Shown here: piece after piece, positions 2,073 to 55,846 of the stretch
Layout of the letters: each line of letters starts with the position of its first letter
How positions within the stretch are numbered: the first letter of the stretch is position 1
IMG/VR virus record: IMGVR_UViG_3300011444_000011
Location: 1 to 64,000 of that record
Strand: one strand, 5' to 3'
Length of the DNA: 64,000 nt
Source of the DNA: a virus
Lineage: Duplodnaviria > Caudoviricetes
The notes under the pieces: model-generated
Database searches by the model: none
What the model saw: only the letters and a program-made list of their open reading frames with translations
Told to the model about the DNA's origin: nothing
Made by a program: the position numbers and the translations under genes

Positions 2073-3053
2073 ATGTCAAACGCTGACAAAAAGCTCGACC
2101 TTCGTAACATTTCGATTTCCGATATCAGGGAGAACCCTGTTGCCCTCCGCGGTGTTGACCGCGAGAGCGACAAGTACAAGTCGGTTCGCGACAGCATCGC
2201 GGCCCGCGGCATCTTGCAGCCGATCAACGTCCGCGAGAAGAATGACCCGGATGGCAAGGTGTACTACGAGGTCGTGGACGGCCTGCAACGGTACAGTTGC
2301 GCCAAGGATGTCGGCCTGACGACGATTGGCGTCAGTGTGATTTCCGCATCAGACGCGGAAGTGCTCGAAACGCAGATCATCACCAACCTGTGCCGCGTTG
2401 ACACGAAGCCGGTGGAATTCACCAAGCAGCTTCAGCGCATGATCGTGATGAATCCGACGATGACCTTGTCGGAAATCGCCGAGCGCGTCAATCAGTCGCC
2501 CGCGTGGGTTACGGGCCGGTTGAGCCTGCTGAAACTGGACGCGAAAATCCAGGAATCGGTGGACGCCGGTGATATCAACGTCAGCAACGCCCAGGCGTTG
2601 TCGAAGTTGCCGAAAGAGGAACAGTTCAACTTCCTCGAACAGGCCATGCAGTTGCAGCCCGGCGAATTTCTGCCGATCGTGCAGAACCGCGTCAAGGAAC
2701 TCCGCGACGCTGCCAAGACCGGACAGGCTGCCGGCGAAACCCAGTTCGTTCCGACCTCGCACTTGCGCGGGAAGAAAGACCTGGAAGCCGAAATGGCGTC
2801 TCCCGCCGTCGGCCCGGCCATGTGCTCTGCGCTCGGTCTGACGACCGCTGCCCAGGGTTTCGCGGCTGCGATCAAGTTCGTGCTGTCGCGTGACGCGGAC
2901 TCGGAAGCGGCCCAGAAGGCCAAGTACGATGCCCGTGCCGCCGAACGTGCGGAAGCGAAGCAGAAGCGCGAAATCGAGCGTGCCGAGAAGAAGGCTGCCG
3001 AAGCGTCGGCCAACGCGGCCAAAGTCAAGGAAGCCGCAGGCGTCACCGCCTAA
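2073..3053 (+). CDS. parB: ParB/Spo0J-family protein 1 (ParB-N + HTH + Ala/Lys-rich coiled coil), with degenerate CTPase motifs
   Basis: SIAARGILQPINVR...VVDGLQRY...IITNLCR, followed by HTH TLSEIAERVNQSPAWVTGRLSLLKL. GGAG RBS upstream. Confidence 0.88.
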   Translation: MSNADKKLDLRNISISDIRENPVALRGVDRESDKYKSVRDSIAARGILQPINVREKNDPDGKVYYEVVDGLQRYSCAKDVGLTTIGVSVISASDAEVLETQIITNLCRVDTKPVEFTKQLQRMIVMNPTMTLSEIAERVNQSPAWVTGRLSLLKLDAKIQESVDAGDINVSNAQALSKLPKEEQFNFLEQAMQLQPGEFLPIVQNRVKELRDAAKTGQAAGETQFVPTSHLRGKKDLEAEMASPAVGPAMCSALGLTTAAQGFAAAIKFVLSRDADSEAAQKAKYDARAAERAEAKQKREIERAEKKAAEASANAAKVKEAAGVTA

Positions 3054-3089
3054 GTCTGATTTGAACATCAGATCGAAACGGTAAATAAC

Positions 3090-3129
3090 CGGCACCGTTT
3101 TGATATCAGTATCAAAACGGTGCCGTTTT
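3090..3129 (+). terminator. Hairpin/terminator with the dispersed palindrome at its apex
   Basis: CGGCACCGTTTTGATA-TCAG-TATCAAAACGGTGCCG followed by TTTT, directly after ParB1. Confidence 0.6.
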
Positions 3130-3157
3130 CATTCACTTTCACCAGAGAACCAAAAAC

Positions 3158-3892
3158 ATGGATTCGCCACAGATTAACGACCCTGAACTCATTGCACGTT
3201 CGCAGGACGCCGCATACGACAACGATCTCATTTCTGTTGACGCTGCCGGCGGCGACCTCATGCCGCAGATGGACGAGAAGCAGCTTGCTGCGGTTTCGTC
3301 CAGCGGTGATTTCCTTCCTCGTCTCCAACTCTTCGGCGGCAACTCCGATGCCTGCAAGAAGGGTCAAATTCAGATCGCCCATTACGGTCTTGTGACCGGC
3401 AAGGATACGATCGAAGACATGGGCAAGGAAGTTGATATCATCGTCATTTGCGGACGGCCGAAAGCCCTTCGCATTTGTGACGATGGCACCATCATCACCA
3501 AGTTTGATCCGAACGACGACGAGTTCAAGAAGATCATGGAAGACTCGAACGTCGCTGACTCCGGCTGTATGTACGGCCCGGAATTCATGGTGTTCGTGCC
3601 TGATGTTCAACGCTTCGCCACGTTCTTCATGTCGTCGAAGACCGCTCGCCGCTCCGCCGCCTCTGTCCACGCTCGATTGCGTAAGGCAGCCACGCTGAAG
3701 GCCGAGTTCATCGAGACGAAGAAGTATTCGTGGCACGGCCCCGTTTGCGTCCCGTGCTCCAGCCCAATGTCGGCTCCGAGCAACGAGGACATTGCAGCCG
3801 CGGTGAAGAAATTCACGTCGGCGAAAGAATCGTCCGTCGAGACAGTTGCAGCACCCGCCGGTGGCGATGCCGCAACCGCTCGCGCACGGTAA
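3158..3892 (+). CDS. Putative ssDNA-binding/replication protein
   Basis: Acidic N-terminus, LPRLQL motif, beta-rich core and position in the replication module. Family resemblance only. Confidence 0.4.
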   Translation: MDSPQINDPELIARSQDAAYDNDLISVDAAGGDLMPQMDEKQLAAVSSSGDFLPRLQLFGGNSDACKKGQIQIAHYGLVTGKDTIEDMGKEVDIIVICGRPKALRICDDGTIITKFDPNDDEFKKIMEDSNVADSGCMYGPEFMVFVPDVQRFATFFMSSKTARRSAASVHARLRKAATLKAEFIETKKYSWHGPVCVPCSSPMSAPSNEDIAAAVKKFTSAKESSVETVAAPAGGDAATARAR

Positions 3893-3963
3893 CACACTCG
3901 ACGCACCACTCATTGCGACGTGCATCAAGGTCGAGTTACGACCCGGCCTAATTAAGCCGGTTG

Positions 3964-3991
3964 GCCGGTTTGATACCAGTATCAAACCGGC
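3964..3991 (+). terminator. Hairpin with the dispersed palindrome at its apex
   Basis: GCCGGTTTGATACCAGTATCAAACCGGC followed by TGTTT. Confidence 0.5.
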
Positions 3992-3996
3992 TGTTT

Positions 3997-4069
3997 GGTG
4001 GGGATAGCTTAACGGTAAAGCACTGGCACTGATAACGCCAGAGTCTAAGGTTCGACTCCTGCCCTGCCT
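3997..4069 (+). tRNA. Degenerate tRNA-like gene (possible Ile-GAT; 19-nt anticodon arm)
   Basis: D arm TAGCTTAACGGTAAAGC, anticodon arm CTGGC-ACTGATAAC-GCCAG, T loop GGTTCGACTCC. T and acceptor stems are imperfect. Confidence 0.55.
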
Positions 4070-4154
4070 CTTTGACCCTTCGTACTAAACGCAAGAAATA
4101 CACCGGGCCTATGTCCCGGAAATGATGTATCGCAATCATCAGGGTCATGCCACA

Positions 4155-4688
4155 ATGATACCGCAAATCAAACCGATCGGCGGGACACAAATCTGCTGGG
4201 ACGTATTTCTTCAAGCCTGTACAGATTCGCTGGGGTATTCGCCAATTCGCGGTGTTGACTCACTCGCCCGCGAATTGTCGGACCCGGCCAAACTGCTTGC
4301 TTCACTGGCTGCGTTCCACAACAAGCAAAACGTCAAGGCTCCGCTCGCAGCGATTAGGAACGCTGGCTCACTGCTTCGGCATTTGAGCTATGCGTTCCTA
4401 ATCTACTGCGATGAGCATTTGATATCCGATATCAGGGAACGGTCCCTGCTGAATGTGACTTCGACAAACGCCGCAGATGGCGAGCGGGTTGCATACGTGA
4501 GCGGAAGCCTCTTTGACTTCCATACTGCAACGCTGGAGTGTTGCACCGAAGACTCGCCATTTGATATCCGATATCTATTCGATGCCTTCGTACTCTACTT
4601 TGAGTCGATCGGCCTCGGAGACATCTGGCACGATCAACGGAAGAAAACTCTCAAAGACAAAACCTTCCTTTTGGAATACATACCATGA
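4155..4688 (+). CDS. ThyX/Thy1-fold-like protein, apparently degenerate
   Basis: LLRHLSYAFLI and YVSGSLFDF...SPFDIRYLF resemble ThyX segments, but the RHR-x7-S signature is absent. Confidence 0.4.
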   Translation: MIPQIKPIGGTQICWDVFLQACTDSLGYSPIRGVDSLARELSDPAKLLASLAAFHNKQNVKAPLAAIRNAGSLLRHLSYAFLIYCDEHLISDIRERSLLNVTSTNAADGERVAYVSGSLFDFHTATLECCTEDSPFDIRYLFDAFVLYFESIGLGDIWHDQRKKTLKDKTFLLEYIP

Positions 4689-8559: not shown

Positions 8560-8599
8560 AACTCTTTTGATATCAGTATCAACTTCCGAGGAATGAACC

Positions 8600-9460
8600 A
8601 TGACCCAGCCCGTCGCTCCTACAACGGGAATGCTCGTTCTCGACATTCCGATGGCGCGTATCTACTGTGACAGTAATTTCAACTGTCGCGGTGCGATCCG
8701 GCCATTTGATGTCGCTGATCTTGCAACGTCAATCCGGGATCAAGGATTACAATTCGCTATCAGTGTGCAACCTGCGGCGGATGTCCAGGGCGGTTTGCCA
8801 GTGAATCAAGAGGATGGCTTGCCATACGAGTATCGTATCGTGGCAGGTCATCGCCGGTACACAGCAGTCAAAGTGCTGAAGTGGGCCACGATTCCTTGCA
8901 CCGTCCGCGAGAACCTTGACGAAAAGAAGGCTCGTATCCTTAATCTCGTTGAGAATTTCCAGCGACAAGACTTGAATATCCTTCAAGAAGCGGAAGCACT
9001 CAAGCACCTGCACGAAGCAGGCGTGCCCCGCGAAACTGTCGCCCGCGAAATTGGTATGAGCGGCGGCTGGGTACAGGTTCGTTTTAATCTGCTCAATCTG
9101 CCGATCGAGATTCAGCAAGAGGCGGCTGCTGGGATGATTACCCAGTACCACATCAAGACGTTGTGTACTTTGAAGTCGCCGGAAGCACAGTACGAAGCTG
9201 TGCGTAAAATCAAAGAGGCCAAGCTGAAAGGCGAGAAGGCTCCGACTATCGGCGTCAGGAAGGCGAAGACCGCCACCATCAAGAAGAAGAGAACCGAGTC
9301 TGAAATGTTTGATATGATTGAGATTCTGGCGCAGACAACGCTGGGATATGGCATCCATACACGGGTTCTTGCATGGGCCGCAGGGGAAATTTCGTCGGCG
9401 GAATTCTTCTGCGATATCAAGAAAGCGGACCCGACGTTCTTTCCGCCGCCGGAATTTTGA
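8600..9460 (+). CDS. parB: ParB/Spo0J-family protein 2 (canonical CTPase motifs + HTH)
   Basis: LATSIRDQGL...IVAGHRRY...LVENFQRQDL, then HTH RETVAREIGMSGGWVQVRFNLLNLP. Confidence 0.92.
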   Translation: MTQPVAPTTGMLVLDIPMARIYCDSNFNCRGAIRPFDVADLATSIRDQGLQFAISVQPAADVQGGLPVNQEDGLPYEYRIVAGHRRYTAVKVLKWATIPCTVRENLDEKKARILNLVENFQRQDLNILQEAEALKHLHEAGVPRETVAREIGMSGGWVQVRFNLLNLPIEIQQEAAAGMITQYHIKTLCTLKSPEAQYEAVRKIKEAKLKGEKAPTIGVRKAKTATIKKKRTESEMFDMIEILAQTTLGYGIHTRVLAWAAGEISSAEFFCDIKKADPTFFPPPEF

Positions 9461-15000: not shown

Positions 15001-15200
15001 TGCCGCTCCTCTTCATCGACGAGTTTGGCAACCAGACGCAGCAGAAAGAAATCACCGAGACGGATATCGAGGCTGCCGAAGACGGTTGCCTCGATATCTT
15101 CCGTCTCAATGGTGATCGCTTTCAGATGCTCATTCACCAAAACGAATGGGTTGATATTCAAGACGGCCCTGCTGCCACGGAGCCACCATGCCCTACATAA
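15000..15200 (+). CDS. Hypothetical protein
   Basis: TGATG coupling. Confidence 0.55.
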   Translation: MPLLFIDEFGNQTQQKEITETDIEAAEDGCLDIFRLNGDRFQMLIHQNEWVDIQDGPAATEPPCPT

Positions 15201-15505
15201 AATCCGAGGCCCGACGTTACTTTGATTCTGATATCCATTCGGTGTCCCTGAAGCTGCGAGAAGAACGGCATCGGGACACGTCGTCCGTTGATGGCAATTG
15301 CAATTATGTCATCAGCCGGATTGTGGCATCCGCCTTCGGACCACAACTGGCCGGTGAGAAGTGGCGATACTGGATGATTGCCAGAGCGATGGGTTGCTTC
15401 ATCTGTGCGGCCCTTGAGTTCTATCGGCGGGTTGGTGCCTGCCGTGAGGATGACGTAATCACCGAAAATGGTGACATTCCCGAATACGAAAGACCCAAAC
15501 AATGA
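15188..15505 (+). CDS. Conserved phage protein (MPYI...NY...EFYRR...NGD type)
   Basis: Pattern recalled from phage nucleotide-metabolism loci. Confidence 0.6.
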   Translation: MPYIKSEARRYFDSDIHSVSLKLREERHRDTSSVDGNCNYVISRIVASAFGPQLAGEKWRYWMIARAMGCFICAALEFYRRVGACREDDVITENGDIPEYERPKQ

Positions 15506-15972
15506 GCGACCGTATCTATCTTGCTGGACCCATCACTGGCCTCAAACATGCCGACACTATCGGCTGGCGTCAGAAGTTCACAGCCCTGCTTGCCGGGACT
15601 GCGATTCAATGCTTCTCGCCGATGCGCGGGAAAGACCACTTGAAACTGCTCGACAAGATCGAGGGATCATATCCCGATAATATCCTGTCGCGGTCGCGGG
15701 CGATCATGACCCGCGATCACTTCGACTGCACGCGGGCGACAATCGTCGTCGCCAATTTGCTACGCGAATACATGCCGGAGAACGGCCTGCCGTCGCTGGG
15801 CACTGTCATGGAAATCGGCTGGGCCTTCATGGGCCGTGTGCCGCTCATCGCCATCATCGACGAGAAGGATTCGCCTTACGACCACCCGATGATTAACGAA
15901 GCCATCGGGTTCCGAGTCACCACTCTCGAACAGGCTGCCGAGACGGCCAAGATGATCCTGTATCCGGTCTGA
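15502..15972 (+). CDS. Nucleoside 2-deoxyribosyltransferase / nucleotide N-hydrolase family
   Basis: IYLAGPI...RD...SLGTVMEIGWA...VP. Confidence 0.82.
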   Translation: MSDRIYLAGPITGLKHADTIGWRQKFTALLAGTAIQCFSPMRGKDHLKLLDKIEGSYPDNILSRSRAIMTRDHFDCTRATIVVANLLREYMPENGLPSLGTVMEIGWAFMGRVPLIAIIDEKDSPYDHPMINEAIGFRVTTLEQAAETAKMILYPV

Positions 15973-16733: not shown

Positions 16734-17240
16734 GTGCGGTTAATCGAAAGCCCAAATAAGTTCTCCTGCCTACCTTGTTCGTTTGCAATGGTACTTGAGA
16801 TCAGCCTTAGCGAAATGTTGGGAAGGATCGGACATAACGGCGATGAGATCATTTGGCCTCACTTACCGGAACCTCAGCGACGGCGTGCATTCCACATACA
16901 GGAATGCGCGGCCGTCGCTTTTTCGTTAGGCTTCGGTGTCATGGAATTCCAGTTTGGGCCTACGTTGACGCCTGACGGGAAATCCGTGTATGACGTGCCA
17001 GTGAATGTCAATATCCGAGAATTGATGTCAGTATCAAATGGCGTGCTCATGGGTCGCGGACGCCAACATGGACACGCTGTCGGTTGGGATGGGAAGCACG
17101 TTCACGACCCGCTAGGCATCATTTATGATATTGAAAATCAAAACCTATTTGCCCCTTTCAGTTATTTCCTAATATCAAATCAATTTTCGCACTTCGGATT
17201 TGCAAAATCTCCAGTATCAAATCAAAATGAAAAATCTTGA
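16734..17240 (+). CDS. Papain-like (C39-like) cysteine peptidase
   Basis: SCLPCSFAMV (Cys), GHAVGWDG (His), HDP (Asp). Confidence 0.55.
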   Translation: MRLIESPNKFSCLPCSFAMVLEISLSEMLGRIGHNGDEIIWPHLPEPQRRRAFHIQECAAVAFSLGFGVMEFQFGPTLTPDGKSVYDVPVNVNIRELMSVSNGVLMGRGRQHGHAVGWDGKHVHDPLGIIYDIENQNLFAPFSYFLISNQFSHFGFAKSPVSNQNEKS

Positions 17241-17710
17241 AAATCTTTTTGGAATACCTCTTGTATTAGCGCGTCGCGCTTGACCGCGTGTTGACCTGTC
17301 GAATATACTGGTAGATGATCGGAAAGCGCCGCGCGCATTCGATCAGCCCGACCGTCGGCCCGACCTGCCCTATACCTCATATATGGGCGCAATCGGCCCG
17401 ACGGAACGGCCAGACGGAACGGCCAATTTACAACGAATGTAGATGCGTTGATACGTCGGCCAATTTGATTTGATATTGGCAATTTGATTGATACTGGTAT
17501 CAGAATGATACTGCTATCAAGACTCTGATTTCCGCATCAGCCCGATAAGCAGAGCGAACGCAAGAAGCGCGACGCCTCGGGATTGTGGCGGAACCCCACA
17601 AGTATGTATATTCGCCGCAACCGGCGTTTTTCCCGCATGGATCGTTTCCATTCCACTTTTCAAGAAAGCGAGGTTTGATACCAATATCAATTTGTTGATA
17701 TGATGGATCG
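17241..17710 (+). promoter_or_regulatory. Regulatory intergenic region
   Basis: TTGACC-18-TATACT near 17280, ACGGAACGGCCA x2, palindrome sites at 17488, 17505 (variant) and 17675, and an AATTTGATTTGATAT element. Confidence 0.5.
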
Positions 17711-17921
17711 TTGAGCCATGAAACATTTATGGGCGTTTCAATGCCAAGACATTCCGACATTCAGCAAGCGAGGAAAGAAACGACGTGCCGTAGACCATCG
17801 GCGGTCACGTCGAGTGAGAGAGAAGAACAACCGAGTGGCAAATACACACGATGCCACGGTTGCGGTGGATTAGTTATCAAACCCTGTCTTCTTTGTAGAC
17901 TGATAGCAATGGAGTCCTAAT

Positions 17922-18149
17922 ATGACCATCGACATGAAAGCGAAACTCGAAGGGGTTGCAATATCAAAGGCGAACTCATTCCGCCCGCATCATCCTGAAA
18001 AGCAACGCAAGAGTCGTAGGCGATATGGACAGAAGCAGGGGAACCTTCCGAAGAACAAAAAGACTTTGAAGTTTGCCCCGCCAGAAGCTCCTGTAGTCCC
18101 TGACTTCATGAGGGAGATTCTTGCGAGATACGTTAGTACGCCTTTCTGA
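17922..18149 (+). CDS. Small basic hypothetical protein
   Basis: GGAG RBS, K/R-rich. Confidence 0.5.
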   Translation: MTIDMKAKLEGVAISKANSFRPHHPEKQRKSRRRYGQKQGNLPKNKKTLKFAPPEAPVVPDFMREILARYVSTPF

Positions 18150-18756
18150 AGAACGAATTGCGATACTGATATCAAAGTTGCCTGACAAGGAAGCCAGGGA
18201 TGAACTGGTCGTCGGGCATTTGAGACTTGGAAAGTATTTAGTGGGCCGCGTCCGCCGACAATACGGCGGTGACTCGGGCGATTTGCTGGGTGCTGCGACA
18301 CTGACGCTCATTAAGTGCGTCGATCGTCTGGCTTCCGGGGATAAGGTGTTAAGTGATGGCAATATCAGTCGGTGGCTAACGATTGAAATGATTGGTGCAA
18401 TGCGGGCAGAAATATGCAACAGTGCATTAGTCAGAATACCGAAAGCTACCTTGCTCCGGCACGTTGCCGCGGGCTCCCGAATGGGAATGACTCGCCTTGA
18501 CTTAACGGATGCCGTACTAGGTTCGGTGTCTAACCCGAAGCGATACGAGGATCAAGACCGTGCAGAAATGGAACGTCTTGATAGGGTCAAAAGCATTCTT
18601 AAAACCGATCTGGAGCACAAGGTCTTTGATCTGAGATATCAAGGTCTGAGTGATACAGAAATTGGCGATTTGATTGGAATGAATCCTCGATCTGTTTTTC
18701 GCATCCGCGAAGACATTGGCAAACGCTTTATGGAGAGTGAGAATAATGGTGAATAG
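18121..18756 (+). CDS. Sigma-70-family RNA polymerase sigma factor (phage)
   Basis: Region 2 ARDELVVGHLRL...DLLGAATLTLIKCVDR, LVRIP, and region 4 EHKVFDLRYQGLSDTEIGDLIGMNPRSV. Confidence 0.78.
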   Translation: MRDTLVRLSEERIAILISKLPDKEARDELVVGHLRLGKYLVGRVRRQYGGDSGDLLGAATLTLIKCVDRLASGDKVLSDGNISRWLTIEMIGAMRAEICNSALVRIPKATLLRHVAAGSRMGMTRLDLTDAVLGSVSNPKRYEDQDRAEMERLDRVKSILKTDLEHKVFDLRYQGLSDTEIGDLIGMNPRSVFRIREDIGKRFMESENNGE

Positions 18757-19234
18757 CGCTATGACAGCGAAAACTCCGGCTACGAAGGTCGGTTCCCTCA
18801 AAGGTGGACGTTCGGAAGTGATTGACGAATGGACGGCGAAGTACAATGAATATCTCAACAATCCCCCGCAGCCCGGCACAATTCTGCGTGCTTTCGGCGA
18901 CAACGAGATGGCCAGGATTGATGTTGATATCGAACAGGGCAAACCGCCCTTCTTGTACGGCCGGGCATACGTCCCGTGCATTGTCGGAAGTCCTCTCGGT
19001 TGGTATCTCCAGTCGAAGGATAACACTTCAGCGTATGGTTGGAAGTGCATTCTTCTGCCGAAAGCAAGGGAAGAAGCGATTCGCAGGTTGGGCTTGTCTC
19101 AGCCGGTGATGACAGTCTTCGCTCTGAAAGTCGTTCGTATGTCTCAGTCAGGCAACAGTTTGCTCTGCGAGATTTGCGAGTTCAATCCGCCGCAGGTTCC
19201 GCCTGTACAACCAACAGAAACGGCAGCGGCATAA
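18746..19234 (+). CDS. Hypothetical protein
   Basis: GGAG RBS, in the gene chain. Confidence 0.6.
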   Translation: MVNSAMTAKTPATKVGSLKGGRSEVIDEWTAKYNEYLNNPPQPGTILRAFGDNEMARIDVDIEQGKPPFLYGRAYVPCIVGSPLGWYLQSKDNTSAYGWKCILLPKAREEAIRRLGLSQPVMTVFALKVVRMSQSGNSLLCEICEFNPPQVPPVQPTETAAA

Positions 19235-19485
19235 TGTCCTTATTCGATCGCGTCGAGTTTGATGATCTTGTCCCGGATGAAGAAAGGGGATTTGATGACC
19301 GGAAGCTGCCCGCCATGATATCGAGTATCAGAATGCAACGCTGCGTCTGCAACCCGATTCAGGTTCGTGAGATTGTGGGCACTACCAAGTACAGAGTTGC
19401 CGATGGTATGCTCCGCTACACGGCCCTATCACGGCTTCCGTTCAGTCATCCTGCTCGATTGTCGATTCCAGTCGAGATTCTCTAG
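19234..19485 (+). CDS. Stand-alone short ParB-N-like domain (83 aa)
   Basis: MISSIRMQRCVCNPIQVR...YRVADGMLRYTAL...IPVEIL, with TAATG coupling. Confidence 0.65.
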   Translation: MSLFDRVEFDDLVPDEERGFDDRKLPAMISSIRMQRCVCNPIQVREIVGTTKYRVADGMLRYTALSRLPFSHPARLSIPVEIL

Positions 19486-20049: not shown

Positions 20050-20260
20050 TTGAGGCATTAGCAGAGGTTAGCTTAGTTTGGACCCACCAAAGGGAACCAC
20101 CTGACAAAGAAAGGCGGTGCGCCATGAAGTTCTAACCCTCAAATGCAAATGATCTTCAAGGCAGAGATGATGCAAACCGAGTGTGAGAATCAAAATGGAG
20201 TCAACCCTTACGGAGAACGTGATACCATGAACTAGAGCCAGAAATGGCTTGCTGGTAAAA

Positions 20261-20335
20261 GTCCGCTGTAGCTCAGTGGTAGAGAGGGACGGGCAAGACC
20301 TGTCCAGGTCGCGGGTTCGAATCCCGCCAGCGGAC
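20261..20335 (+). tRNA. tRNA-like gene with a non-canonical anticodon arm (identity undetermined)
   Basis: Acceptor GTCCGCTG/CAGCGGAC, D arm TAGCTCAGTGGTAGAG, perfect T arm GCGGG-TTCGAAT-CCCGC. The anticodon arm GGACGGG-CAAGA-CCTGTCC lacks U33. Confidence 0.75.
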
Positions 20336-20349
20336 CTGTGTGTTGCGTT

Positions 20350-20499
20350 AGTCAGGTAGGAGCAGACCTAGTGGGACGGGAGTGGAGAGCATTAAGGAAT
20401 GGCAGTAAGGCCGATCAGCCAGAACCCACCCTATGTTCGATCCATAAACGGAGTGGCAGTGACGCCTGATAAGCTGATCGTGTCCACACCGGCCTGACT
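20350..20499 (+). ncRNA. Putative structured ncRNA
   Basis: Nested stems AGTCAGG/CCTGACT and CGATCAGC/GCTGATCG, plus a T-loop-like TATG-TTCGATC-CATA. No plausible ORF. Confidence 0.4.
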
Positions 20500-20528
20500 T
20501 TTGATACCAATATCAATCTGGAGCAAAC

Positions 20529-20804
20529 ATGAAGACAATCGTGCTTCCGAACGAGTTGACGGCAAAACTTCACGACGTAACGGTGAACAGTGAGAATCGG
20601 TGTCAATGCTGCGGGGATATGTGCCTGCAAGTCCAAATCGACGGTGAGAACATACACGGCTACCAGCCGCTCGCCAACGGCTATACTGGCTTCATCATCC
20701 ACGATCAACGGTTCATCTTCCGTCGCACGCTCGATCAGTTGCGTGTGGAAGCTGGACTCCTGACCGCCGATGAATTCGCCGAGGCCGCTTACGAAGGGGC
20801 ATGA
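20529..20804 (+). CDS. Hypothetical protein
   Basis: Palindrome and GGAG RBS upstream. Confidence 0.6.
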   Translation: MKTIVLPNELTAKLHDVTVNSENRCQCCGDMCLQVQIDGENIHGYQPLANGYTGFIIHDQRFIFRRTLDQLRVEAGLLTADEFAEAAYEGA

Positions 20805-21019
20805 TGAAACTCATGGTGATCTGGGCCTCGCCGGCCGGCATTCTTGAATTGATGAAACGGATGCAAGAGCACAAGTTTGATTTTCAAATCGAATTTGTCC
20901 AAAGCGGTGTAGCGTACCTGACTTCAAGTGCAATCAGATGGTCGCACATGGAGTTGTGGTTGGCCGAAATCAGAAAGCAAGTCGAGACTGACTTTTACCC
21001 GGAAATGGTGGGACTATGA
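20801..21019 (+). CDS. Hypothetical protein
   Basis: ATGA coupling. Confidence 0.55.
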   Translation: MMKLMVIWASPAGILELMKRMQEHKFDFQIEFVQSGVAYLTSSAIRWSHMELWLAEIRKQVETDFYPEMVGL

Positions 21020-29566: not shown

Positions 29567-30151
29567 ATGAAGTACGTTTCAATCGACCTTGAGACGACTG
29601 GTCTCAACCCGGACAAGTGTCAGATTCTGGAGATCGGTGCTGTGTTCAATGATGACACCGTTCCGCTCGCCGCTTGTCAGGTCTACCACCGGCTCATTTA
29701 TCCGCCGGGTGGCATCTTTAAGGGCGAGGCTTACGCCCTGTGGATGAACGCCCACATCCTCAAGGAAATCCACGATCTTAACACGGCGAAGGCCGGGAAG
29801 GACAAGCTGATCGAGAACGGTGATTTGAAATATCAATTCGCCGAATGGTTGTATCAACTCGGCTACGAGAAACGCGACGACAAAACCGCTGGCGTCGTCG
29901 CGGCCGGGAAGAATTTTCAAGGCTTCGATCTGCGATTCCTTCGCCGGTACGACGTGGAAGACCTGATTATCTTCAAGCATCGGGAGATCAATCCGGGGAT
30001 GTACTCGCACCAGTTGGCTGACGACGTGCCGCCGGATACGGCAGCCTGTCTGAAGCGTGCTGGCCTGGAAGGTTCGGTCAAACACCGAGCGGTGGATGAC
30101 GCTCTCGACGTATGTCGTCTCATTCGGACACACTTCGGTGTTCCGATCTGA
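29567..30151 (+). CDS. DEDDh 3'-5' exonuclease (DnaQ/oligoribonuclease-like)
   Basis: IDLETTGL, GKNFQGFDLRFL, HRAVDDA. Confidence 0.88.
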   Translation: MKYVSIDLETTGLNPDKCQILEIGAVFNDDTVPLAACQVYHRLIYPPGGIFKGEAYALWMNAHILKEIHDLNTAKAGKDKLIENGDLKYQFAEWLYQLGYEKRDDKTAGVVAAGKNFQGFDLRFLRRYDVEDLIIFKHREINPGMYSHQLADDVPPDTAACLKRAGLEGSVKHRAVDDALDVCRLIRTHFGVPI

Positions 30152-30651
30152 TGAAGGAATACGTCTGCGTCTACGTCAAATCCCTTGTGCCTAACCATTG
30201 CCTTTTGATACGGAAATCAAGCCCGGACTGGCAGAAGGGAAAGCTGAACCTAGTCGGCGGCAAAATCGAACCGGGAGAAACGGTCGAGCAAGCTGCGAAA
30301 AGAGAGCTTGAAGAAGAGACGGTACTTGTCGGCTTTAACTTCAAGGTCCGTGGTGCAGTAACAGGCAAGAAATGTCATGATCCGAAGTACGATCAAGATG
30401 GCTGGATTGTCTGGTTTCTGACGTGCGATATCGACGTTGACGTGCTTGAAATCGACCAGTCGCATCGGGAAGAGCCGGTGCAGTGGTACTGGATTGACGA
30501 AGCACTGGACATTTTACCTCTGATCCCAAACCTCAAACTCATCATCCCATTACTGGACATAAACGCACCCGACTGGAAACTAACGGAAACTCCGAGCGGT
30601 CTTGTGTACGAGTCCTGTAACTGGGAGACGAGATGTATGACCTCAGTATGA
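30151..30651 (+). CDS. NUDIX hydrolase
   Basis: Nudix box GGKIEPGETVEQAAKRELEEET. Confidence 0.9.
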   Translation: MKEYVCVYVKSLVPNHCLLIRKSSPDWQKGKLNLVGGKIEPGETVEQAAKRELEEETVLVGFNFKVRGAVTGKKCHDPKYDQDGWIVWFLTCDIDVDVLEIDQSHREEPVQWYWIDEALDILPLIPNLKLIIPLLDINAPDWKLTETPSGLVYESCNWETRCMTSV

Positions 30652-31088
30652 AGTCATACTGCCGCGGGCATCTCGACTACCTTGTTGATATTGATATCAA
30701 GTCCTATGACGAAGTCTGGGAGCCTAATCAACTTCACAAGGTCGGTCGCGATATCCGTGTCTGTGTGATGGACACGTCGGATGAGATAGTCGGCTTTTAT
30801 CTGGTCAACGCTCAAGCTGGCCGGTTGGGTCGCTTAATCAAGTTTGCTGTGAAACCGTCCTGGCGTCGTCAAGGCATCGGGACGTTCATGATGGAGAATC
30901 TGCTATTGCAATCGTGGGAGCTAACGACTTTGTCGTGTCTTGTGGACGAAGCCGAGCTTCCGGCCCAACTCTTCCTGAAGGAAAATTACTTCGGATGCCG
31001 CCGCCAGTTGAAAGGGCGAAATGGAAACATCAACTACCTCTTCACCCGACCAACCTGCGCCCAGCGTGGTGAAACTCGGGCGAGCTAA
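30648..31088 (+). CDS. GNAT (RimI-like) acetyltransferase
   Basis: FAVKPSWRRQGIGTFM and AQLFL...F. Confidence 0.8.
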   Translation: MKSYCRGHLDYLVDIDIKSYDEVWEPNQLHKVGRDIRVCVMDTSDEIVGFYLVNAQAGRLGRLIKFAVKPSWRRQGIGTFMMENLLLQSWELTTLSCLVDEAELPAQLFLKENYFGCRRQLKGRNGNINYLFTRPTCAQRGETRAS

Positions 31089-31473
31089 TTTCGACCCAAG
31101 CAAGTATTCGTTGATTATCCTCAAGCCGGATGCAATGCTAGGTGATTTGTGGGGAGCAATCATGCACCAACTGGCCATCTTCGGTCACAAGCCGATGTAT
31201 GGCCGGACGTTGGTGATGACTGATACTGATATCAATTCACACTACGCGGAGCATGTGGGTAAGGATTTCTTTCCACGGCTCGCGGAGTTCATGAAATCTG
31301 GCCCGTCATGGGTCATGCTTTCGTTTGGATCGTGGTCAGCAGCACGCGACCTGTGTGCGAACATTCGCAAAGAATACAATACTAAGAACCCTTCAAACCT
31401 AATCCATGCCAGCGACTCGCCCGAAGCGGTTTTCCGCGAAGCGAAATTCTGGTTCCCAGGAATCTTCTCATGA
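31069..31473 (+). CDS. ndk: Nucleoside-diphosphate kinase
   Basis: IILKPDA, HYAEHVGKDFFPRL...SGP, NLIHASDS. Start uncertain (track start 31021). Confidence 0.9.
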   Translation: MKLGRANFDPSKYSLIILKPDAMLGDLWGAIMHQLAIFGHKPMYGRTLVMTDTDINSHYAEHVGKDFFPRLAEFMKSGPSWVMLSFGSWSAARDLCANIRKEYNTKNPSNLIHASDSPEAVFREAKFWFPGIFS

Positions 31474-37971: not shown

Positions 37972-38282
37972 TATTCGTTCAATTCACACTCGGCATTCTC
38001 TTACTCTGTGTCGCCTTCACCGTATTCATGGTGGGTGTTATGGGGACTTTGTTCGTTATGGACAACATCGGAAATTGTGCCGATTCCGAGGAACTCGTTG
38101 ATGAACTCGAAGACCTGCAACATCGGTACAACGAGCTTGTCGAAACGATGCTGGCCGTCGAAGAGATTCTTGATCCCGAGACTCCGCCAACACGCGAGGA
38201 ACTGGAAACGATTGCTGATCTGCGGGCCGGCAAGTGCAAAGTGATACTGGTATCAGGAGCAGCCGATGCAGTACCAGCCTGA
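37968..38282 (+). CDS. Membrane-anchored coiled-coil protein
   Basis: N-terminal TM followed by an acidic coiled coil. Confidence 0.55.
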   Translation: MIFVQFTLGILLLCVAFTVFMVGVMGTLFVMDNIGNCADSEELVDELEDLQHRYNELVETMLAVEEILDPETPPTREELETIADLRAGKCKVILVSGAADAVPA

Positions 38283-38862
38283 TTTCTTTGCCGCGTACAG
38301 AAAGTACCTTGATGATCCGGCCGTAAAGGCCACCCACGCGAGGATGTTCAAAATCTTCGACGATCACTTCGTATGCGGGTCGATGAACCGCGTCGTGGAC
38401 CTGGGCTGCGGTACGTGCGAGTTCGCGCGTTACATGGATGAACAAGAGTGGATGAACAGCTACCACGGCTTTGATTTGGATATCAGCCGTGCTGATGTTG
38501 ACAACATCGACAATGTCAGCATTACCTTGAAGGAAGCTGATTTCACGACCGGCGATGTGATCGAGCCGCACGATATGTTCGTGAGCCTCTTCGCGTCCGA
38601 GATCATCCTACCGTGGGATGAACACGAGAAGTTGTACGACAAGTGGTTTGAGAAGGGCGCGTCGATTGGATTGGTGGCCGGCTTCCACTATCTGCATTGC
38701 CCGCACTTCCCGCAGGTTACTGAGAAAACTGGCTACACCGTCTACCAGACGACGCCCAGTTCTCCAATGCGCAGCGAACTACGGATGTGCCAGCAGGTGC
38801 CGCCGGGAATGTTCGTTGACCCGTTCGTTGAGGTCTGGAGAGTGATATGGCCGAGCAAATGA
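38266..38862 (+). CDS. Class I SAM-dependent methyltransferase
   Basis: VVDLGCGT, YHGFDL, EADF. Confidence 0.75.
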   Translation: MQYQPDFFAAYRKYLDDPAVKATHARMFKIFDDHFVCGSMNRVVDLGCGTCEFARYMDEQEWMNSYHGFDLDISRADVDNIDNVSITLKEADFTTGDVIEPHDMFVSLFASEIILPWDEHEKLYDKWFEKGASIGLVAGFHYLHCPHFPQVTEKTGYTVYQTTPSSPMRSELRMCQQVPPGMFVDPFVEVWRVIWPSK

Positions 38863-39308
38863 AACGACGCGGTTTCTTGGGCATGTTGGCGTCTTTGATA
38901 CCAGTATCAAAGGTGCTTCTGACCATTCCGAAACCCAAACCGAAAGGCCCGAGTCCCGACTTGTCGGGTGCCGCAGCCTGCCGCCGGACAGTGGCTGATC
39001 CGGTCGAGTTAGTTCACATTCCGGTGTCAGAGATCGACTTCCACGCCCATGACTCTTTCGTCCGGCATCCGGTTATGGAACACGTTCACCGACTGGCGGT
39101 GGATATGGAAGAACGCGGCATGTGTATGCCGATTTACGTCAGGAAGATGGCATCCGGCAAGTACGGAGTCATCAACGGAACGCACCGTGCGTGGGCTGCC
39201 CGTAGCTTAAAGTGGCCGACGGTTTTGGCCTACGTCACGCACACGACGGACGCGGAAGCACTGGCCCTATTTATTAACCTCAACTCACAACGGAGCGTGA
39301 AATGTTGA
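38859..39308 (+). CDS. ParB-N domain protein with a twin-arginine (Tat-like) N-terminus
   Basis: MKRRGFLGMLASLIP..., then IPVSEID...LAVDMEERGMCMPIYVR...VINGTHRAWAA...INLNSQR. No HTH. Confidence 0.75.
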   Translation: MKRRGFLGMLASLIPVSKVLLTIPKPKPKGPSPDLSGAAACRRTVADPVELVHIPVSEIDFHAHDSFVRHPVMEHVHRLAVDMEERGMCMPIYVRKMASGKYGVINGTHRAWAARSLKWPTVLAYVTHTTDAEALALFINLNSQRSVKC

Positions 39309-48563: not shown

Positions 48564-48566
48564 CAC

Positions 48567-49407: not shown

Positions 49408-49422
49408 TATGAGGAATAGATC

Positions 49423-51008: not shown

Positions 51009-51043
51009 TGCGGTATCGGTTAATGCGGTATCGGTTAATGCGG
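51000..51043. repeat. 15-bp tandem repeat ATCGGTTAATGCGGT x3
   Basis: Read directly; followed by a palindrome site at 51050. Confidence 0.85.
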
Positions 51044-51339
51044 GCTTGGTTGATACCAGTATCAATGATAAGGTCTGGCAACGGATGATTAGCGCCAAGC
51101 ACAAATGGACGGTGTCTCATGTGCTCGTGGTGGCCAGATCAGTGAATCTGGAATCCGAGCATCCAGTTGGTGTCCCTGAATTGATCGCTGTAGCCAAACA
51201 GGTAATGGAAAGGTATCATAATGAGAGACCCCAATGAGCTACCGTCGGTTGCTGAACTCATAGCCTTCGGCCTCTTAGGGCTGGCGTGCATAGTCTTGTT
51301 CATCATGCTCACAAAGGCCATCATCGAAAGGGCAGGATT

Positions 51340-51618
51340 ATGAAAATCTCACCATCTGATATCCGCACCAGAGATCATTTCTGGGATACGTTCGATAAGA
51401 ACGAGATCGAATGCGCGGCCCGCAACATCGTCATCGCTTCCCAGAAGAAGGGTGATTGGTTCGATTTCACGGAAGATGATATTAACATCGGACCTTGGGG
51501 CAACTTCTTCGTGGTCAACGGGTACTTGTCGCGAGTAGGCAAGACGAAATATCGCGTGCTCCCCGAGTTCGTGATGAAACTAAGCAAATATCTAAAGAAG
51601 GGAGTCATCAGTGTCTAA
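51340..51618 (+). CDS. Hypothetical protein
   Basis: AGGA RBS. Confidence 0.6.
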   Translation: MKISPSDIRTRDHFWDTFDKNEIECAARNIVIASQKKGDWFDFTEDDINIGPWGNFFVVNGYLSRVGKTKYRVLPEFVMKLSKYLKKGVISV

Positions 51619-52342
51619 TACGATTTGGCACGGCGATTGCGTCAAGTTTGTTCATCAGTTGAGGCCGGTCAAGTGCATCATCGCTGATCCGCCGGACAAT
51701 CTCGATTTGGGGTATGACGGCTTTACAGACTTCAACCCCGATTACTACGGGTGGCTTGGTTCCCTGATCCGGGCATCCGTCGAGCGGTGCGACCATTTCT
51801 GGTTGAGCTATTATCACGCTCACGACCTCGCAATATCGAGCATTGTCTACGATGTTGTACGCCGGAAGGGACTGGACTGGCACAAGTACCTTTGGCGGTT
51901 CACGTTCGGCCAGCATAAGGAAACTGATTGTGGGAGCGGTTACAGAACAATCCTCAGATTATCGCAGCCTTCGCAGCCGCTTAATACATCAGCGGTTCGG
52001 GTGCCCAGCCTGCGACAGACGTTATACAACGACCCACGAGCTAATCCGGCAGGAAGGGTTCCAGACGATGTCTGGGAGTTCCCGCGTGTTACCGGCAACA
52101 GCCATGAACGAAGAGCATGGCATCCGACGCAGCATCCCGTAGCCGTGTACTCCCGGATACTGCGGCTGTCAACGGCACCGGGCGATAAGGTGGTGGACCT
52201 GTTCGCGGGCACGGGCACACTTTTCAGAGCGAACCACTCATACAAGCTCTCGGAACGACGGGAATGCTCGGCAGTTGATATCAGTATCAAATACTGCCAG
52301 GAGATCGCTAAGGAACATCAACTGGAGATCAAGACCATTTGA
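51611..52342 (+). CDS. N4-C/N6-A DNA methyltransferase (beta class) with variant catalytic motif DPPD
   Basis: IWHGDC, IIADPPDN, DVWEF, HPTQHP, VVDLFAGTGT. Confidence 0.82.
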   Translation: MSNTIWHGDCVKFVHQLRPVKCIIADPPDNLDLGYDGFTDFNPDYYGWLGSLIRASVERCDHFWLSYYHAHDLAISSIVYDVVRRKGLDWHKYLWRFTFGQHKETDCGSGYRTILRLSQPSQPLNTSAVRVPSLRQTLYNDPRANPAGRVPDDVWEFPRVTGNSHERRAWHPTQHPVAVYSRILRLSTAPGDKVVDLFAGTGTLFRANHSYKLSERRECSAVDISIKYCQEIAKEHQLEIKTI

Positions 52343-52773: not shown

Positions 52774-53282
52774 TGGAAGCAATAGGACGACGTGATTTCT
52801 TCAAGATGAGTGCTTGCGCCGGAGCGATCCTAATACCGGGCCTACATCTGTTGGCAGCCGAGCACCACATTCCCTACCAACTGGGAGTGTGGAATAAGGA
52901 AGAGTGTATCCGGGTTCCGGTTCGTGCTCTTGCCAATGATTGGGGACACGTTGTTGCCCTCGCTGATATTGCCATCAGAGACGCCAAGACGTGGGTAGGG
53001 GCGTGCCTGCTTCGGAACGACGATTCGATTCTCGCAGCAGCACCGTTCAGCAGCACGGTTGCCGTCATAAATGGCGACACCATCAAACTGTCCTACGCGA
53101 TCAACTGGCCAGAATGTGCTGACAGGCGGGAATGGAACAGGATTGTAGGTGGTCTGTCCAAGTCCCGCCGGTTGCAACGAGGATTCGAGCCATCAGTTGT
53201 CAGCGGCACCGGCCCTCACCTGGAGCTTTCAGACTACGACAACATGGCTTTGAGGGCACCCAGATTACCTACACGGCAATAG
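52773..53282 (+). CDS. Hypothetical protein with a Tat-like signal
   Basis: GRRDFFKMSACAGAILIP. Confidence 0.6.
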   Translation: MEAIGRRDFFKMSACAGAILIPGLHLLAAEHHIPYQLGVWNKEECIRVPVRALANDWGHVVALADIAIRDAKTWVGACLLRNDDSILAAAPFSSTVAVINGDTIKLSYAINWPECADRREWNRIVGGLSKSRRLQRGFEPSVVSGTGPHLELSDYDNMALRAPRLPTRQ

Positions 53283-53322
53283 TGGTCTACCTACACTAAA
53301 GATGCGCTTGACCACCCCAAAC

Positions 53323-53380
53323 AGCGCTTAGGTCCGAATAGCGATTAGGTCCGAATAGCGCTTAGGTCCGAATAGCGCTT
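53323..53380. repeat. 17-bp tandem repeat AGCGMTTAGGTCCGAAT, three full copies plus a partial (iteron-like)
   Basis: Copies at 53323, 53340, 53357 and a partial at 53374. Confidence 0.9.
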
Positions 53381-53390
53381 GGCAAGTTTC

Positions 53391-53934
53391 TGATATCAAT
53401 TCCTGCTGACACTTTTGTGACAACTTTGTGAGCCTATTACCGCCCCAACCAAGCGTCGCCACTTTGAGGCGAAGGCTCGGCCGGAAAGCAGTAAGCGATC
53501 GTCAGGCAAGAGGCTGGCAGCCCTTGCAATGCCTCTAGCGTCGGGACTCCGTCGAACTTACCGGAGGCTTCCGAAGGGGTGAAAGTGGTAAGTCGTTTCA
53601 GGATAAGGGGTTAGGGACTCCGCGCGACTGGAATACCAAAAACTGATTCGCCCATGCTCCCTTATGGAATACTCTCTCTTTATTCTCTTTTACTTTTCCT
53701 ATACCTTTAATTTAGAGAGTAAGTAGATAGAAAAGAGTCAAACCGTTGCCTGATAAGGGGTTAAGTGCTTACCCATTTGTTCGCTGGTCAGTCAGAAACA
53801 GTCTGCCGGCGATGCAAGTCGTTATCGTGAAACGGGTTCCAGTCGGTCGGGGTGTCAGCAAAAGGGTAAGCGGTTCGGGCCTCGCGGCTTGCTGACATAA
53901 TTTGTCACAAAAGTGTCAGCAAGAATTGATATCA
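53391..53934. repeat. Segment bounded by 33-bp inverted repeats TGATATCAATTCYTGCTGACACTTTTGTGACAA
   Basis: 53391-53423 versus 53902-53934, one mismatch. Interior is non-coding. Confidence 0.85.
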
Positions 53935-54226
53935 ACATCAAAGCCCTAGTCTTAGCGCTATTCAATTGTTAAAGGGAAGTTTCATGAATGGAAATTCATA
54001 TACCCACATTTCAAGGGGCTTGTGTGCCCGCGTTATATATTGATTTCTCCAGTGCCCTGCGGGTGGAAAAGGGCGGGTTGTAACGATTATAACGATTGTA
54101 ATGGTTTTGGCGGTCCTGCCGGTTGTGCTTAATTTGCGGATCATCCGGCTTATTACGAATTTGCCGGTCGCTCCGATTGTGCCGTGATTCCGCAAATCAA
54201 CGCCCTGCTGCCATTATGGCACGCCA

Positions 54227-54311
54227 GCCGCAAACCGTTGCCAGATAACGAGTTAAACGCATAAGTCAATTCTTATGCGACATAACTCGTTGCCTGACCA
54301 CGGTTTGCGGC
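54227..54311. repeat. 85-bp imperfect palindrome
   Basis: GCCGCAAACCGT..AACGAGTTA..CGCATAAG / CTTATGCG..TAACTCGTT..ACGGTTTGCGGC. Confidence 0.8.
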
Positions 54312-54552
54312 GTTTTCGTTTCACCTTATATATGCAATCGTGGTCCGGTTATAACGATTGTAACGTGTAAAGAAAATGAAACACTGTACACAACAAAATG
54401 ATTCAAATTGTGAACACTCCGGCCCGACCTGCCCGCGTGCCATTCGCTGCAAGTGCTTACGCTGTAACGAGTTATGGCAATTCCGAAATTTCTTGCCAGT
54501 TTCGGCACGCCGTTCGCTCTTTACTCGTTTCGGAATTGTTCTCAATTCGGCC

Positions 54553-54580
54553 TTGACTTGCCGGAACCGTGAGATACAAT
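54553..54580 (+). promoter_or_regulatory. Sigma70-type promoter upstream of ParB3
   Basis: TTGACT-16-TACAAT. Confidence 0.6.
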
Positions 54581-54679
54581 TTACCAGACGGCCAAACGTC
54601 GGCCCGTCAATTCGGCCAATTTGATTTGATACTGTCGAATTTGCTGATTTTCAATATCAAGTATCGGGAGAAACGAGTT

Positions 54680-55846
54680 ATGTCAAAGGTCGATATCGAC
54701 GCCCCGTTGATGCCTGACGTTGACCTGTCCACCGCGGCGGGACAAGCGCAGGCCGTTACGTTTTACCATGATGCCGTTCAAGGGTTGAACGCATCGGGTA
54801 AGAATCAGCGCCTTCCGGTCGCTGATTTGACAATCAATCCCGACAATCCCCGCGAGGAATACGACGTTGACGGAATGATCGCATCTTTCCGCCACCGTGG
54901 TTTCGTCATCGGTGCGCCGATTACGATTTCCAAGCGCGCCGACGGCGTCAACATGGTTTTGCGTGGCAATCGTCGCGTGTCTGCCGCGCAGAAGTTCGCC
55001 ACGGTTGACCCGGAAGGGTTCAAGAAAGTCTTTCCCGATGGAAAGATTCCCTGTCTGGTCTTGACCGATCTTTCCCGCGCCGAAGAAACGACGGTCTTGA
55101 TTGACCACGGGAAAGAGCAAGACCGACGGAAACTGTCGGCCCGCGAGGAACTCCGCGCCATTCGCCAGTTGATGAAAGCTGGCATTAAGGGGCGCGATGC
55201 AATCGCCCGCGCTCTTGACCTGATTACGGTATCAAAAGACGATAAAGGGGTTGAAACGGAGAAAGTTCGTTCGTCTTACGTTCAACCGCGCCTCAATTTG
55301 CTTGCCTTGCCGGAAGCCGTGCAAGTCAAGTACATCGGCGAATCGTCGATGTTCGGCGGGAAAAATGCTGTTCTGAAACAGCAGACAATCGCGCCGCTGT
55401 ACACTGCCCTGTCAAACGACAGGAAGGCCGGAAACATCGGTCAAGACGGTTTCGGGCCGGAACTCCGCGCCGCGTGGGATACCCTCTTGGCAACGCCCAC
55501 AACGCCCGCCAGTGATGCGCCCGTCAAGTATATCGCTGATAGCAAGTGCAAAGCGCTCTTGCAGGAATGCGACAGCGCCGCCCTGACGAATGCCCTGACC
55601 TATTTCGGCGGTTACAGCAAAACGCTGAAACTGTCGGAAATCGACAGCGCCTGTCAGGCCGCGGAGCAAGCGCAAGTCATGCTGGCGCACATTGCCGATT
55701 TTGTCGGCCCTGACGAATTTGCCAGCCTGTGCGAAAAGGCCGATTCTGCGGCCCGTGCCAAAGCTGACGCCTTGAAGGCTTCTGCCGGTCCTGCCGACGG
55801 AACCGAAAAGGTCGAATCGACCGAAAAGGTCGAAGTCAACGCCTAG
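54680..55846 (+). CDS. ParB-like protein 3 (first gene of the putative early region)
   Basis: LPVADLTINPDNPR...SFRHRGF...PITIS...VLRGNRRVSAA, then a helical/HTH-like region ending RLNLLALPEAVQ. GGGAG RBS. Confidence 0.8.
   Translation: MSKVDIDAPLMPDVDLSTAAGQAQAVTFYHDAVQGLNASGKNQRLPVADLTINPDNPREEYDVDGMIASFRHRGFVIGAPITISKRADGVNMVLRGNRRVSAAQKFATVDPEGFKKVFPDGKIPCLVLTDLSRAEETTVLIDHGKEQDRRKLSAREELRAIRQLMKAGIKGRDAIARALDLITVSKDDKGVETEKVRSSYVQPRLNLLALPEAVQVKYIGESSMFGGKNAVLKQQTIAPLYTALSNDRKAGNIGQDGFGPELRAAWDTLLATPTTPASDAPVKYIADSKCKALLQECDSAALTNALTYFGGYSKTLKLSEIDSACQAAEQAQVMLAHIADFVGPDEFASLCEKADSAARAKADALKASAGPADGTEKVESTEKVEVNA

Follow-up and report, generated by a model that had tools for sequence, protein, structure and literature searches.

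Dispersed dyads and a ParA-less pair of ParB genes in an uncultured siphovirus genome: a candidate KorB/Noc-like network

The first 64,000 nucleotides of the IMG/VR virus record IMGVR_UViG_3300011444_000011 (Duplodnaviria; Caudoviricetes), referred to below as the window, contain four genes of the ParB family (ParB1 to ParB4) and a short palindromic dyad, which is repeated throughout the whole 94,423-bp record (G000; 97% complete according to CheckV) far more often than is expected. Judging from sequence comparisons, we propose, with about even confidence, that the dyads are docking sites for a ParA-independent genome-wide ParB network of the KorB/Noc type, with ParB1 as the most likely reader. 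The original prediction, made from the window, spoke of five ParB-domain genes combined with dispersed palindromes; its observation is partly confirmed here, and its interpretation is partly supported.

The dyad and the ParB-family genes

In its strict form the dyad reads TTGATAYCARTATCAA; the relaxed form is TGAT-N6/7-ATCA. The window contains 57 matches to TTGATAYCAGTATCAA at no more than two mismatches (some sites being matched on both strands), against 0.06 expected per 64 kb. Counted as distinct sites, strict dyads number 48 in the window and 61 in the genome (about 0.1 expected). There are 136 relaxed dyads against about 5 expected (102 with N6 and 34 with N7 spacing, about 2.7 expected for each), which amounts to about one per 700 bp with a median gap of 545 bp, and they are found in every module. 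The palindrome is thus commoner than had been claimed. The individual copies quoted at 2033, 3100, 8567 and 38895 are all present, and where site variants had been described upstream of and inside ParB3, dyads were found at both places. A scan of IMG/VR with the exact 16-mer gave, among the matches listed, single chance occurrences.

The placement of the dyads is not uniform. Fifty of the 136 (37%) are intergenic, a 2.7-fold enrichment over the 14% share of non-coding DNA (p about 1e-11), and many of these are located 10-25 nt before a start codon; the remaining 86 (63%) lie within genes, against about 5 expected genome-wide, in both orientations and never in the register that puts TGA in frame. 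Some dyads (e.g., 17675 and 1572) overlap promoter-like -35 elements, which we take to be the operator position of KorB class I sites. Others tip GC-rich terminator-like hairpins: in the window those at 3100, 3970 and 20028, and in the rest of the record those at 70020, 76912 and 91261. Overlapping double dyads of the TTGATATTGATATCAGTATCAA type, offset by 6 bp, were also observed inside terminator-like hairpins of the structural module (G000 positions 70014-70035 and 76906-76927).

Among the proteins, ParB_N (PF02195) scores above the Pfam cut-off in ParB1, ParB2 and ParB4, and the helix-turn-helix (HTH) domain HTH_ParB (PF17762) in ParB1 and ParB2; by sequence search the latter two also match the solved structures of ParB, Spo0J, Noc and KorB (E 1e-19 to 1e-5). 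ParB3 has no Pfam match and only weak sequence matches in PDB; it is recognised by ParB PHROGs (PHROG 4715) at E 1e-10 and by its AlphaFold2 (AF2) model (confidence score pLDDT 75.5), which resembles Noc, ParB and KorB over about 240 columns that span N domain and HTH (Foldseek E 4e-7). The best structural or sequence matches of ParB3 and ParB4 are to Noc, and some ParB2 homologues have a weak Pfam match to KorB. The fifth gene of the original prediction, an open reading frame (ORF) at 19234, proved to be a weak ParB-N fragment only: it is similar to the N-terminal core of ParB1 (BLASTP E 3e-4; hhalign E 5e-5, 68% probability, 44 columns), and the Pfam and PHROG searches gave no match for it. 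Neither this fragment nor ParB4 has an HTH. The “ParB-like helix repeats” attributed to the gene at 42266 did not hold up, since ParB similarity was sought there by Pfam, PHROG and further comparisons and none was found.

The two marks of a ParABS system, a cognate ParA and a ParA-binding motif, are both missing in G000. A search with PF13614 and PF01656 at E<=10 over the whole 94,423-bp record gave no match, while all control genomes did match; the absence of ParA, originally noted for the window, therefore extends to the whole 97%-complete genome. The ParA-binding motif (L/F/I)G(K/R)G(L/F/I), as defined in PMC12704722, was looked for with a regular expression in ParB1-4 and in the 19234 fragment, and none was found.

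The nucleotide-binding motifs differ among the paralogs. Compared with the canonical cytidine triphosphate (CTP) motifs (box II GERRxRA, box III ENxxR), ParB2 has GHRR and ENFQR, i.e., it retains both arginines, the Glu-Asn pair and the box III arginine and has lost the box II glutamate. With these near-canonical motifs, ParB2 is the best candidate for a CTP clamp of the KorB/Noc type. The corresponding boxes of ParB1 are DGLQR and TNLCR, without the first arginine and both glutamates; in its orthologues box II is conserved as DGL[QH]R in all cases and box III as [A/T]N..[KR]. ParB3 has GNRR and LLALP, and ParB4 has GTHR.

The paralogs are not equivalent. ParB1 and ParB2 belong to the core of the clade described below. 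ParB3 is lineage-specific: its homologues are eight proteins at 43-71% identity confined to close relatives, with only faint matches in G002 and G006. ParB4 is unique to G000 among the genomes compared and has no DNA-binding domain. It probably represents an N-domain-only accessory working with the adjacent methyltransferase-like gene; its ordinary reading by analogy would be an enzyme cofactor, since phage ParB-methyltransferase fusions and N-only ParBs that activate dioxygenases have been described. The protein starts with MAEQMKRRGFLGML, a twin-arginine-like leader after which come a hydrophobic stretch and a PKPKPKGP linker (38847-38960), which is odd for a DNA-associated fold; the leader might serve to anchor the protein in the membrane and not to export it.

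The dyad among relatives and its predicted reader

Nearly all genes of the record are on the plus strand. They include structural and packaging genes (tape-measure protein, portal and a GpA-type large terminase, TerL) and a replication set of the phage's own (family A polymerase, SNF2 and UvrD helicases, ligase and primase-helicase). A tyrosine integrase was sought across G000 and not found; the phage is probably virulent rather than temperate. Megablast of 20 kb against cultured phages gave no match, and protein searches with TerL, ParB1 and ParB2 revealed no close cultured phage (identity up to 27% for TerL and up to about 35% for ParB).

With TerL as the query, 80 IMG/VR contigs proved to be related (37-53% identity). 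ParB_N is above the Pfam cut-off in 24 of the 26 larger ones, the usual layout being two ParB_N ORFs of about 330 and 285 aa separated by 4-7 kb, at times with a third. They form a large uncultured siphovirus group with ParB1 and ParB2 as core genes: orthologues of ParB1, of its downstream neighbour (3158-3892) and of ParB2 are present in every genome compared, and the syntenic order is primase-helicase, control region, ParB1, neighbour, SNF2, ParB2, PolA. A search with ParB2 gave 396 homologues at E<=1e-30.

The dyad is strongly enriched in G001, G003, G005, G006, G013, G014, G019 and G020 (69 copies of the TTGATTTASTAAATCAA type in G005), and five closer relatives, identified by way of the ParB3 and ParB2 homologues, show enrichment as well. 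Overall, among about 32 relatives it is strong in about 12, moderate in about 6 and absent in about 10. On a tree of five proteins from nine genomes, motif bearers occupy all three main branches, so that the dyad is probably ancestral and was lost at least twice. In a relative at about 68% nucleotide identity, about a third of the G000 sites are found at the same position, where about 5% would be expected (an estimate), and several further sites differ there by one base; to judge from these alignments, this indicates that the dyads are under purifying selection with turnover. The co-variation of ParB paralog number with motif density, proposed originally, was not observed: the two showed no relation among the relatives. 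Among the genomes compared, no gene was found whose presence tracks the dyad.

We consider ParB1, to which the comparative evidence links the dyad, the likeliest of the predicted readers because of its status as a core protein with a DNA-binding domain, the dyads upstream of it and the covariation of its helix with the half-site. Of the clade-core proteins, only ParB1 and ParB2 have a recognised DNA-binding domain; 7 of 12 genomes have a dyad at most 90 nt upstream of the ParB1 start codon, and in the others ATCA-armed inverted repeats can be seen there by eye. Covariation was tabulated over 27 genomes between the ParB1 residue that follows “NA” in the second DNA-contact helix and the base next to TGAT. 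This residue is Y in 8 genomes, all of which have TGAT-T half-sites, and Q or C in all three TGAT-A genomes; G005 (TGATTTA, N7 spacing) has N at this place, and G020 (TGAT-C) has F. Since the TGAT-A genomes do not form a single clade on the ParB1 tree, at least two co-changes of helix and half-site have occurred. ParB2 was also tried as a tracker of the half-site and rejected: its residues at the helix positions that presumably correspond to the ParB/Noc specificity residues vary by lineage and fail to separate TGAT-A from TGAT-T genomes.

The proposed mechanism and its alternatives

We presume that a phage-encoded ParB-family dimer, most likely ParB1, docks at the dispersed dyads. The ancestor of the clade would have had the ParA-less ParB1 and ParB2 pair in its replication module and a few ATCA-armed sites at the ParB1 promoter, serving the autoregulation of ParB1 in the way known from KorB and many ParBs; the sites would then have multiplied, in several lineages and most extremely in G000, to about one per 700 bp. 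With sites at gene starts, in terminator loops and within genes, the whole genome would come within reach of the bound or sliding protein. The output would be genome-wide control of transcription and/or organisation of the replicating phage DNA, and not partition, because ParA, the ParA-binding motif and an integrase are all lacking and the phage has replication machinery of its own. ParB3 is a lineage-specific third paralog with an N domain and an HTH.

It is tempting to go further and propose that, in a clade of probably virulent phages, more than 100 loading sites per genome, together with the ParB paralogs, build a ParB-DNA coat or condensate round the replicating chromosome, ParB1 being a CTP-independent site-specific nucleator and ParB2 a spreading CTP clamp; we regard this as improbable. 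Were it true, the result would be a ParA-independent compartment, protecting the DNA against host nucleases or giving order to replication, timing and packaging. The whole-genome coating, shielding and membrane tethering suggested originally are speculation.

Several points weigh against the docking-site proposal itself. ParB1, the best candidate for the reader, has no canonical GERR/ENxxR, its CTP binding is doubtful to judge from its motifs, and it may not be a CTP clamp at all. About 10 relatives, including G002, G004 and G007, keep ParB1 and ParB2 without dispersed dyads; the ParBs are therefore not dependent on many sites. A general search for dyads in these three genomes found no alternative enriched palindrome. 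The covariation comes from 15 genomes and about four events, and the half-site preferences are just 50-90%. About 100 small ORFs have no assigned function and could hide another regulator, and the intergenic enrichment and the sites near start codons fit an ordinary repressor as well.

The main rival explanation is one that we consider unlikely: the dyads would be operators of another phage regulator, such as a small Cro/CI-like or HTH protein, and form a stoperator-like network, while the ParBs would have a different task, for example in replication or DNA modification, and simply be neighbours of some sites. Dispersed repressor sites exist in Cluster A mycobacteriophages (PMC9283540). In the present case 37-51% of the sites are intergenic against 14% of non-coding DNA, and many are 10-25 nt before start codons or over promoter-like -35 hexamers; the inner bases of the site differ by lineage, as they would for a fast-evolving regulator, and the ParBs persist where dispersed dyads are lacking. 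G000 does encode at least one other weak HTH protein (18241-18756), but it is matched only in G003, and no non-core gene tracks the motif. The TGAT/ATCA arms are conserved in a clade whose only conserved recognised DNA binders are ParB1 and ParB2, and it is the ParB1 helix that co-varies with the half-site. Moreover, 63% of the sites are genic, and the sites are symmetric and not oriented with transcription, unlike stoperators.

The dyads could also be a DNA mark, read by an enzyme (a nuclease for nicking or packaging, or one that modifies DNA) or serving as a signal in self-recognition or anti-defence, with a ParB-N protein maybe acting as cofactor of the enzyme; we find this rather improbable. 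One preprint (bioRxiv 10.1101/2025.08.14.668559) reports phage ParB-N proteins as activators of dioxygenases that modify DNA, but a TET/JBP dioxygenase gene was sought across G000 and not found. The phage encodes an N6_N4 methyltransferase (51611-52342), the methyltransferase-like gene beside ParB4 and a deoxyribosyltransferase-like gene; among the full genomes compared, the N6_N4 methyltransferase is matched only in the motif-less G004 and not in G005 with its 69 sites, while the close relatives L258 and L261 carry it. The even spread of the sites through genes of every module fits such a mark, and the mixed N6/N7 spacing is unusual for an enzyme target. It is also general knowledge that phages usually avoid rather than accumulate palindromic enzyme targets.

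Two further explanations are less probable still. Transcription signals, i.e., promoter elements (TTGATA as -35, TGnTATCAA as extended -10) or parts of terminators, are very improbable: 86 of the 136 sites are genic and occur in both orientations, the conserved dyad symmetry is not needed by promoters, ATG follows the site after just 0-4 nt in several cases and leaves no space for a transcript start, and a phage sigma factor was sought across G000 and not found. On the other side are the resemblance of TTGATA to the -35 consensus, its use in four promoter-like matches, the six to eight sites at or adjoining GC-rich terminator hairpins and several sites 10-17 nt before start codons. The least credible proposal, in our opinion, is a recruited host factor, e.g., a global regulator of the CRP/FNR type or a nucleoid protein. 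The TTGAT...ATCAA arms do resemble the FNR box, and the lineage-specific inner bases could mirror different hosts; however, the FNR box has N4 spacing and the dyads have N6 or N7, the arms are conserved in phages with G+C of 0.39-0.53 and probably different hosts, and the covariation with the phage ParB1 is left unexplained.

As to the importance of the problem, ParB-CTPases are known as partition or plasmid-silencing clamps acting at a handful of sites, and the function of orphan ParBs in phages is mostly obscure. The clade offers a conserved ParA-less ParB pair located in the replication module, a natural titration series in site number (relatives range from a few sites per genome to about 136) and a residue-to-base covariation that predicts which paralog reads the site. 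A few purified proteins and synthetic sites would thereby be enough to test the role of phage ParBs directly, with no need of a host culture.

Accompanying features and comparison with known systems

The coordinates of the ParB-family genes, selected dyads and related features are given in the table.

Table. Positions in the 64,000-bp window of ParB-family genes, dyads and associated elements
Feature	Coordinates	Strand	Remarks
ParB1	2073..3053	+	ParB_N and HTH (Pfam), charged helical tail; clade-core
ParB2	8600..9460	+	ParB_N and HTH (Pfam); near-canonical CTP motifs; clade-core
ParB3	54680..55846	+	divergent ParB/Noc/KorB-like N domain, HTH, C-terminal helical domain
ParB4	38847..39308	+	ParB_N only; RRGFLG twin-arginine translocation (Tat)-like or hydrophobic leader
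class I S-adenosylmethionine (SAM) methyltransferase-like gene	38266..38862	+	overlaps ParB4 start; weak Pfam matches below curated cut-off
83-aa ORF	19234..19485	+	resembles first half of ParB1-type N domain (DGMLRY); weak; missed by codon-usage gene caller
strict dyad	1572..1587	.	abuts start of minus-strand primase-helicase gene, divergent control region
dyad	2033..2048	.	25 nt upstream of ParB1 start codon; position recurs in 7 of 12 genomes
terminator-like hairpin, 16-bp stem	3090..3125	.	3' of ParB1; dyad 3100-3115 at tip
strict dyad	3970..3985	.	within GC-rich hairpin
strict dyad	8567..8582	.	18 nt upstream of ParB2 start codon
two adjacent dyads	17488..17520	.	in 1.1-kb stretch (16.8-17.9 kb) without called gene
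strict dyad	38895..38910	.	inside ParB4 gene, in leader codons
three-dyad cluster	61063..61132	.	upstream of conserved gene at 61340; about 4.5 kb upstream of large terminase gene
ATCAAATCA	1607..1615	+	inverted pair with 2005-2013, flanking ParB1 control region
ATCAAATCA	2005..2013	-	partner of 1607 copy
ATCAAATCA	54622..54630		just upstream of ParB3

A second motif, the related 9-mer ATCAAATCA with the extended form (A)TATCAAATCAAATTGG, occurs 11 times in G000 against about 0.7 expected, mostly in intergenic DNA (positions include 1607, 2005, 17174, 17216, 17466, 54622 and 55998). About 12 of 25 relatives, against about one by chance (an estimate), have it no more than about 600 bp upstream of ParB1, frequently in the form of an inverted pair, which also counts in favour of the docking-site proposal. 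Its function could be that of an iteron, an operator or an upstream element of promoters. No gene was called in 16760-17920 and 53283-54680, two stretches of 1.1-1.4 kb that are dense in dyads, ATCAAATCA and promoter-like matches; the former (16.8-17.9 kb) has three ATCAAATCA copies besides its promoter-like matches. Both stretches are candidates for origins or control regions. Positions 1850 and 17345 share a GC-rich segment, CAGCCCGACCGTCGGCCCG.

The minus-strand ORFs at 3-1568 of the window and 93240-94421 of G000 are probably two parts of one primase-helicase of about 900 aa; relatives have a single DUF5906 gene of 900-914 aa at that position, adjoining ParB1, and the record appears to be circularly permuted. 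Throughout the clade the plus-strand gene at 3158-3892 always follows ParB1 (35-49% identity); Pfam and PHROG gave no match for it. Its AF2 model has a confident core and no significant fold match, with weak rows resembling oligonucleotide-binding or single-strand DNA-binding proteins (OB/SSB-like) and the phiC31 recombination directionality factor (RDF); from the model, the product may be a single-strand DNA-binding protein. Genes of nucleotide metabolism cluster at 15188-15972 and 29567-31473 (DUF6899, nucleoside 2-deoxyribosyltransferase-like, RNase T-like exonuclease, NUDIX, GNAT acetyltransferase and nucleoside diphosphate kinase), which hints at control of the nucleotide pool or DNA modification. 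The N6_N4 DNA methyltransferase gene (plus strand) is located about 2 kb upstream of ParB3, is kept in close relatives and contains a strict dyad at 52275. The relative L264 (58% identity in ParB2) encodes two sigma-70-family proteins (17383-18045 and 20090-20825), none being detected in G000.

Among the known systems, many copies of one short site across a phage genome are also characteristic of the stoperators of Cluster A mycobacteriophages (L5 gp71, Bxb1 gp69), where dozens of sites and one phage protein provide genome-wide silencing (PMC9283540). Stoperators are asymmetric, oriented with transcription, placed in intergenic gaps and bound by the monomeric immunity repressor of a temperate phage; the sites described here are dyads, mostly genic and in both orientations, in a phage where no integrase was found.

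According to one survey (PMC12704722), phages commonly have ParA-less ParB-N folds, in many cases fused to N6N4 or Methyltransf_23 domains, and according to another study (bioRxiv 10.1101/2025.08.14.668559) N-domain-only ParBs activate a DNA-modifying enzyme, 5mYOX. ParB4 with its methyltransferase-like neighbour fits this class, whereas ParB1-3 retain the HTH and come with a cognate-looking dispersed site; the consulted parts of the two sources describe no genome-wide site set, and the preprint on the dioxygenase makes no mention of palindromes.

Noc of Bacillus subtilis is likewise an orphan ParB paralog that arose by duplication, has its own scattered palindromes (about 70 Noc-binding sites, NBS) and acts without ParA, and its membrane-targeting helix is loosely similar to the N-terminal hydrophobic leader of ParB4. 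Its sites occur at about one per 60 kb. Noc is a cellular regulator of the division site, and the density of sites in the phage is about 80-fold higher.

The closest known system is KorB with its OB sites in the plasmid RK2: a ParB-family N-terminal nucleoside triphosphate (NTP) domain with an HTH, and palindromes over the whole replicon, some at promoters and some distant. The KorB CTP clamp acts from dispersed OB sites, and its sliding gives long-range silencing (PMC11790492). KorB also regulates its own operon, and multiple dispersed palindromes including one at the promoter of the putative regulator itself, 25 nt before the ParB1 start codon, were found in the phage as well. On the other hand, RK2 is an IncP plasmid with the ParA homologue IncC and the clamp-lockers KorA/TrbA, while the phage, probably virulent, has no ParA/IncC and no recognised KorA; RK2 has 12 OB sites in 60 kb and the phage about 136 in 94 kb, most of them genic; and one protein is replaced by two conserved paralogs, of which ParB1 has no canonical CTP motifs. 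The five differences are the lack of ParA, the probably virulent phage as the replicon, the two conserved paralogs, the divergent NTP motifs of the putative reader and a density of sites far higher than that of KorB or Noc. We know of no denser arrangement of an orphan ParB and dispersed palindromes.

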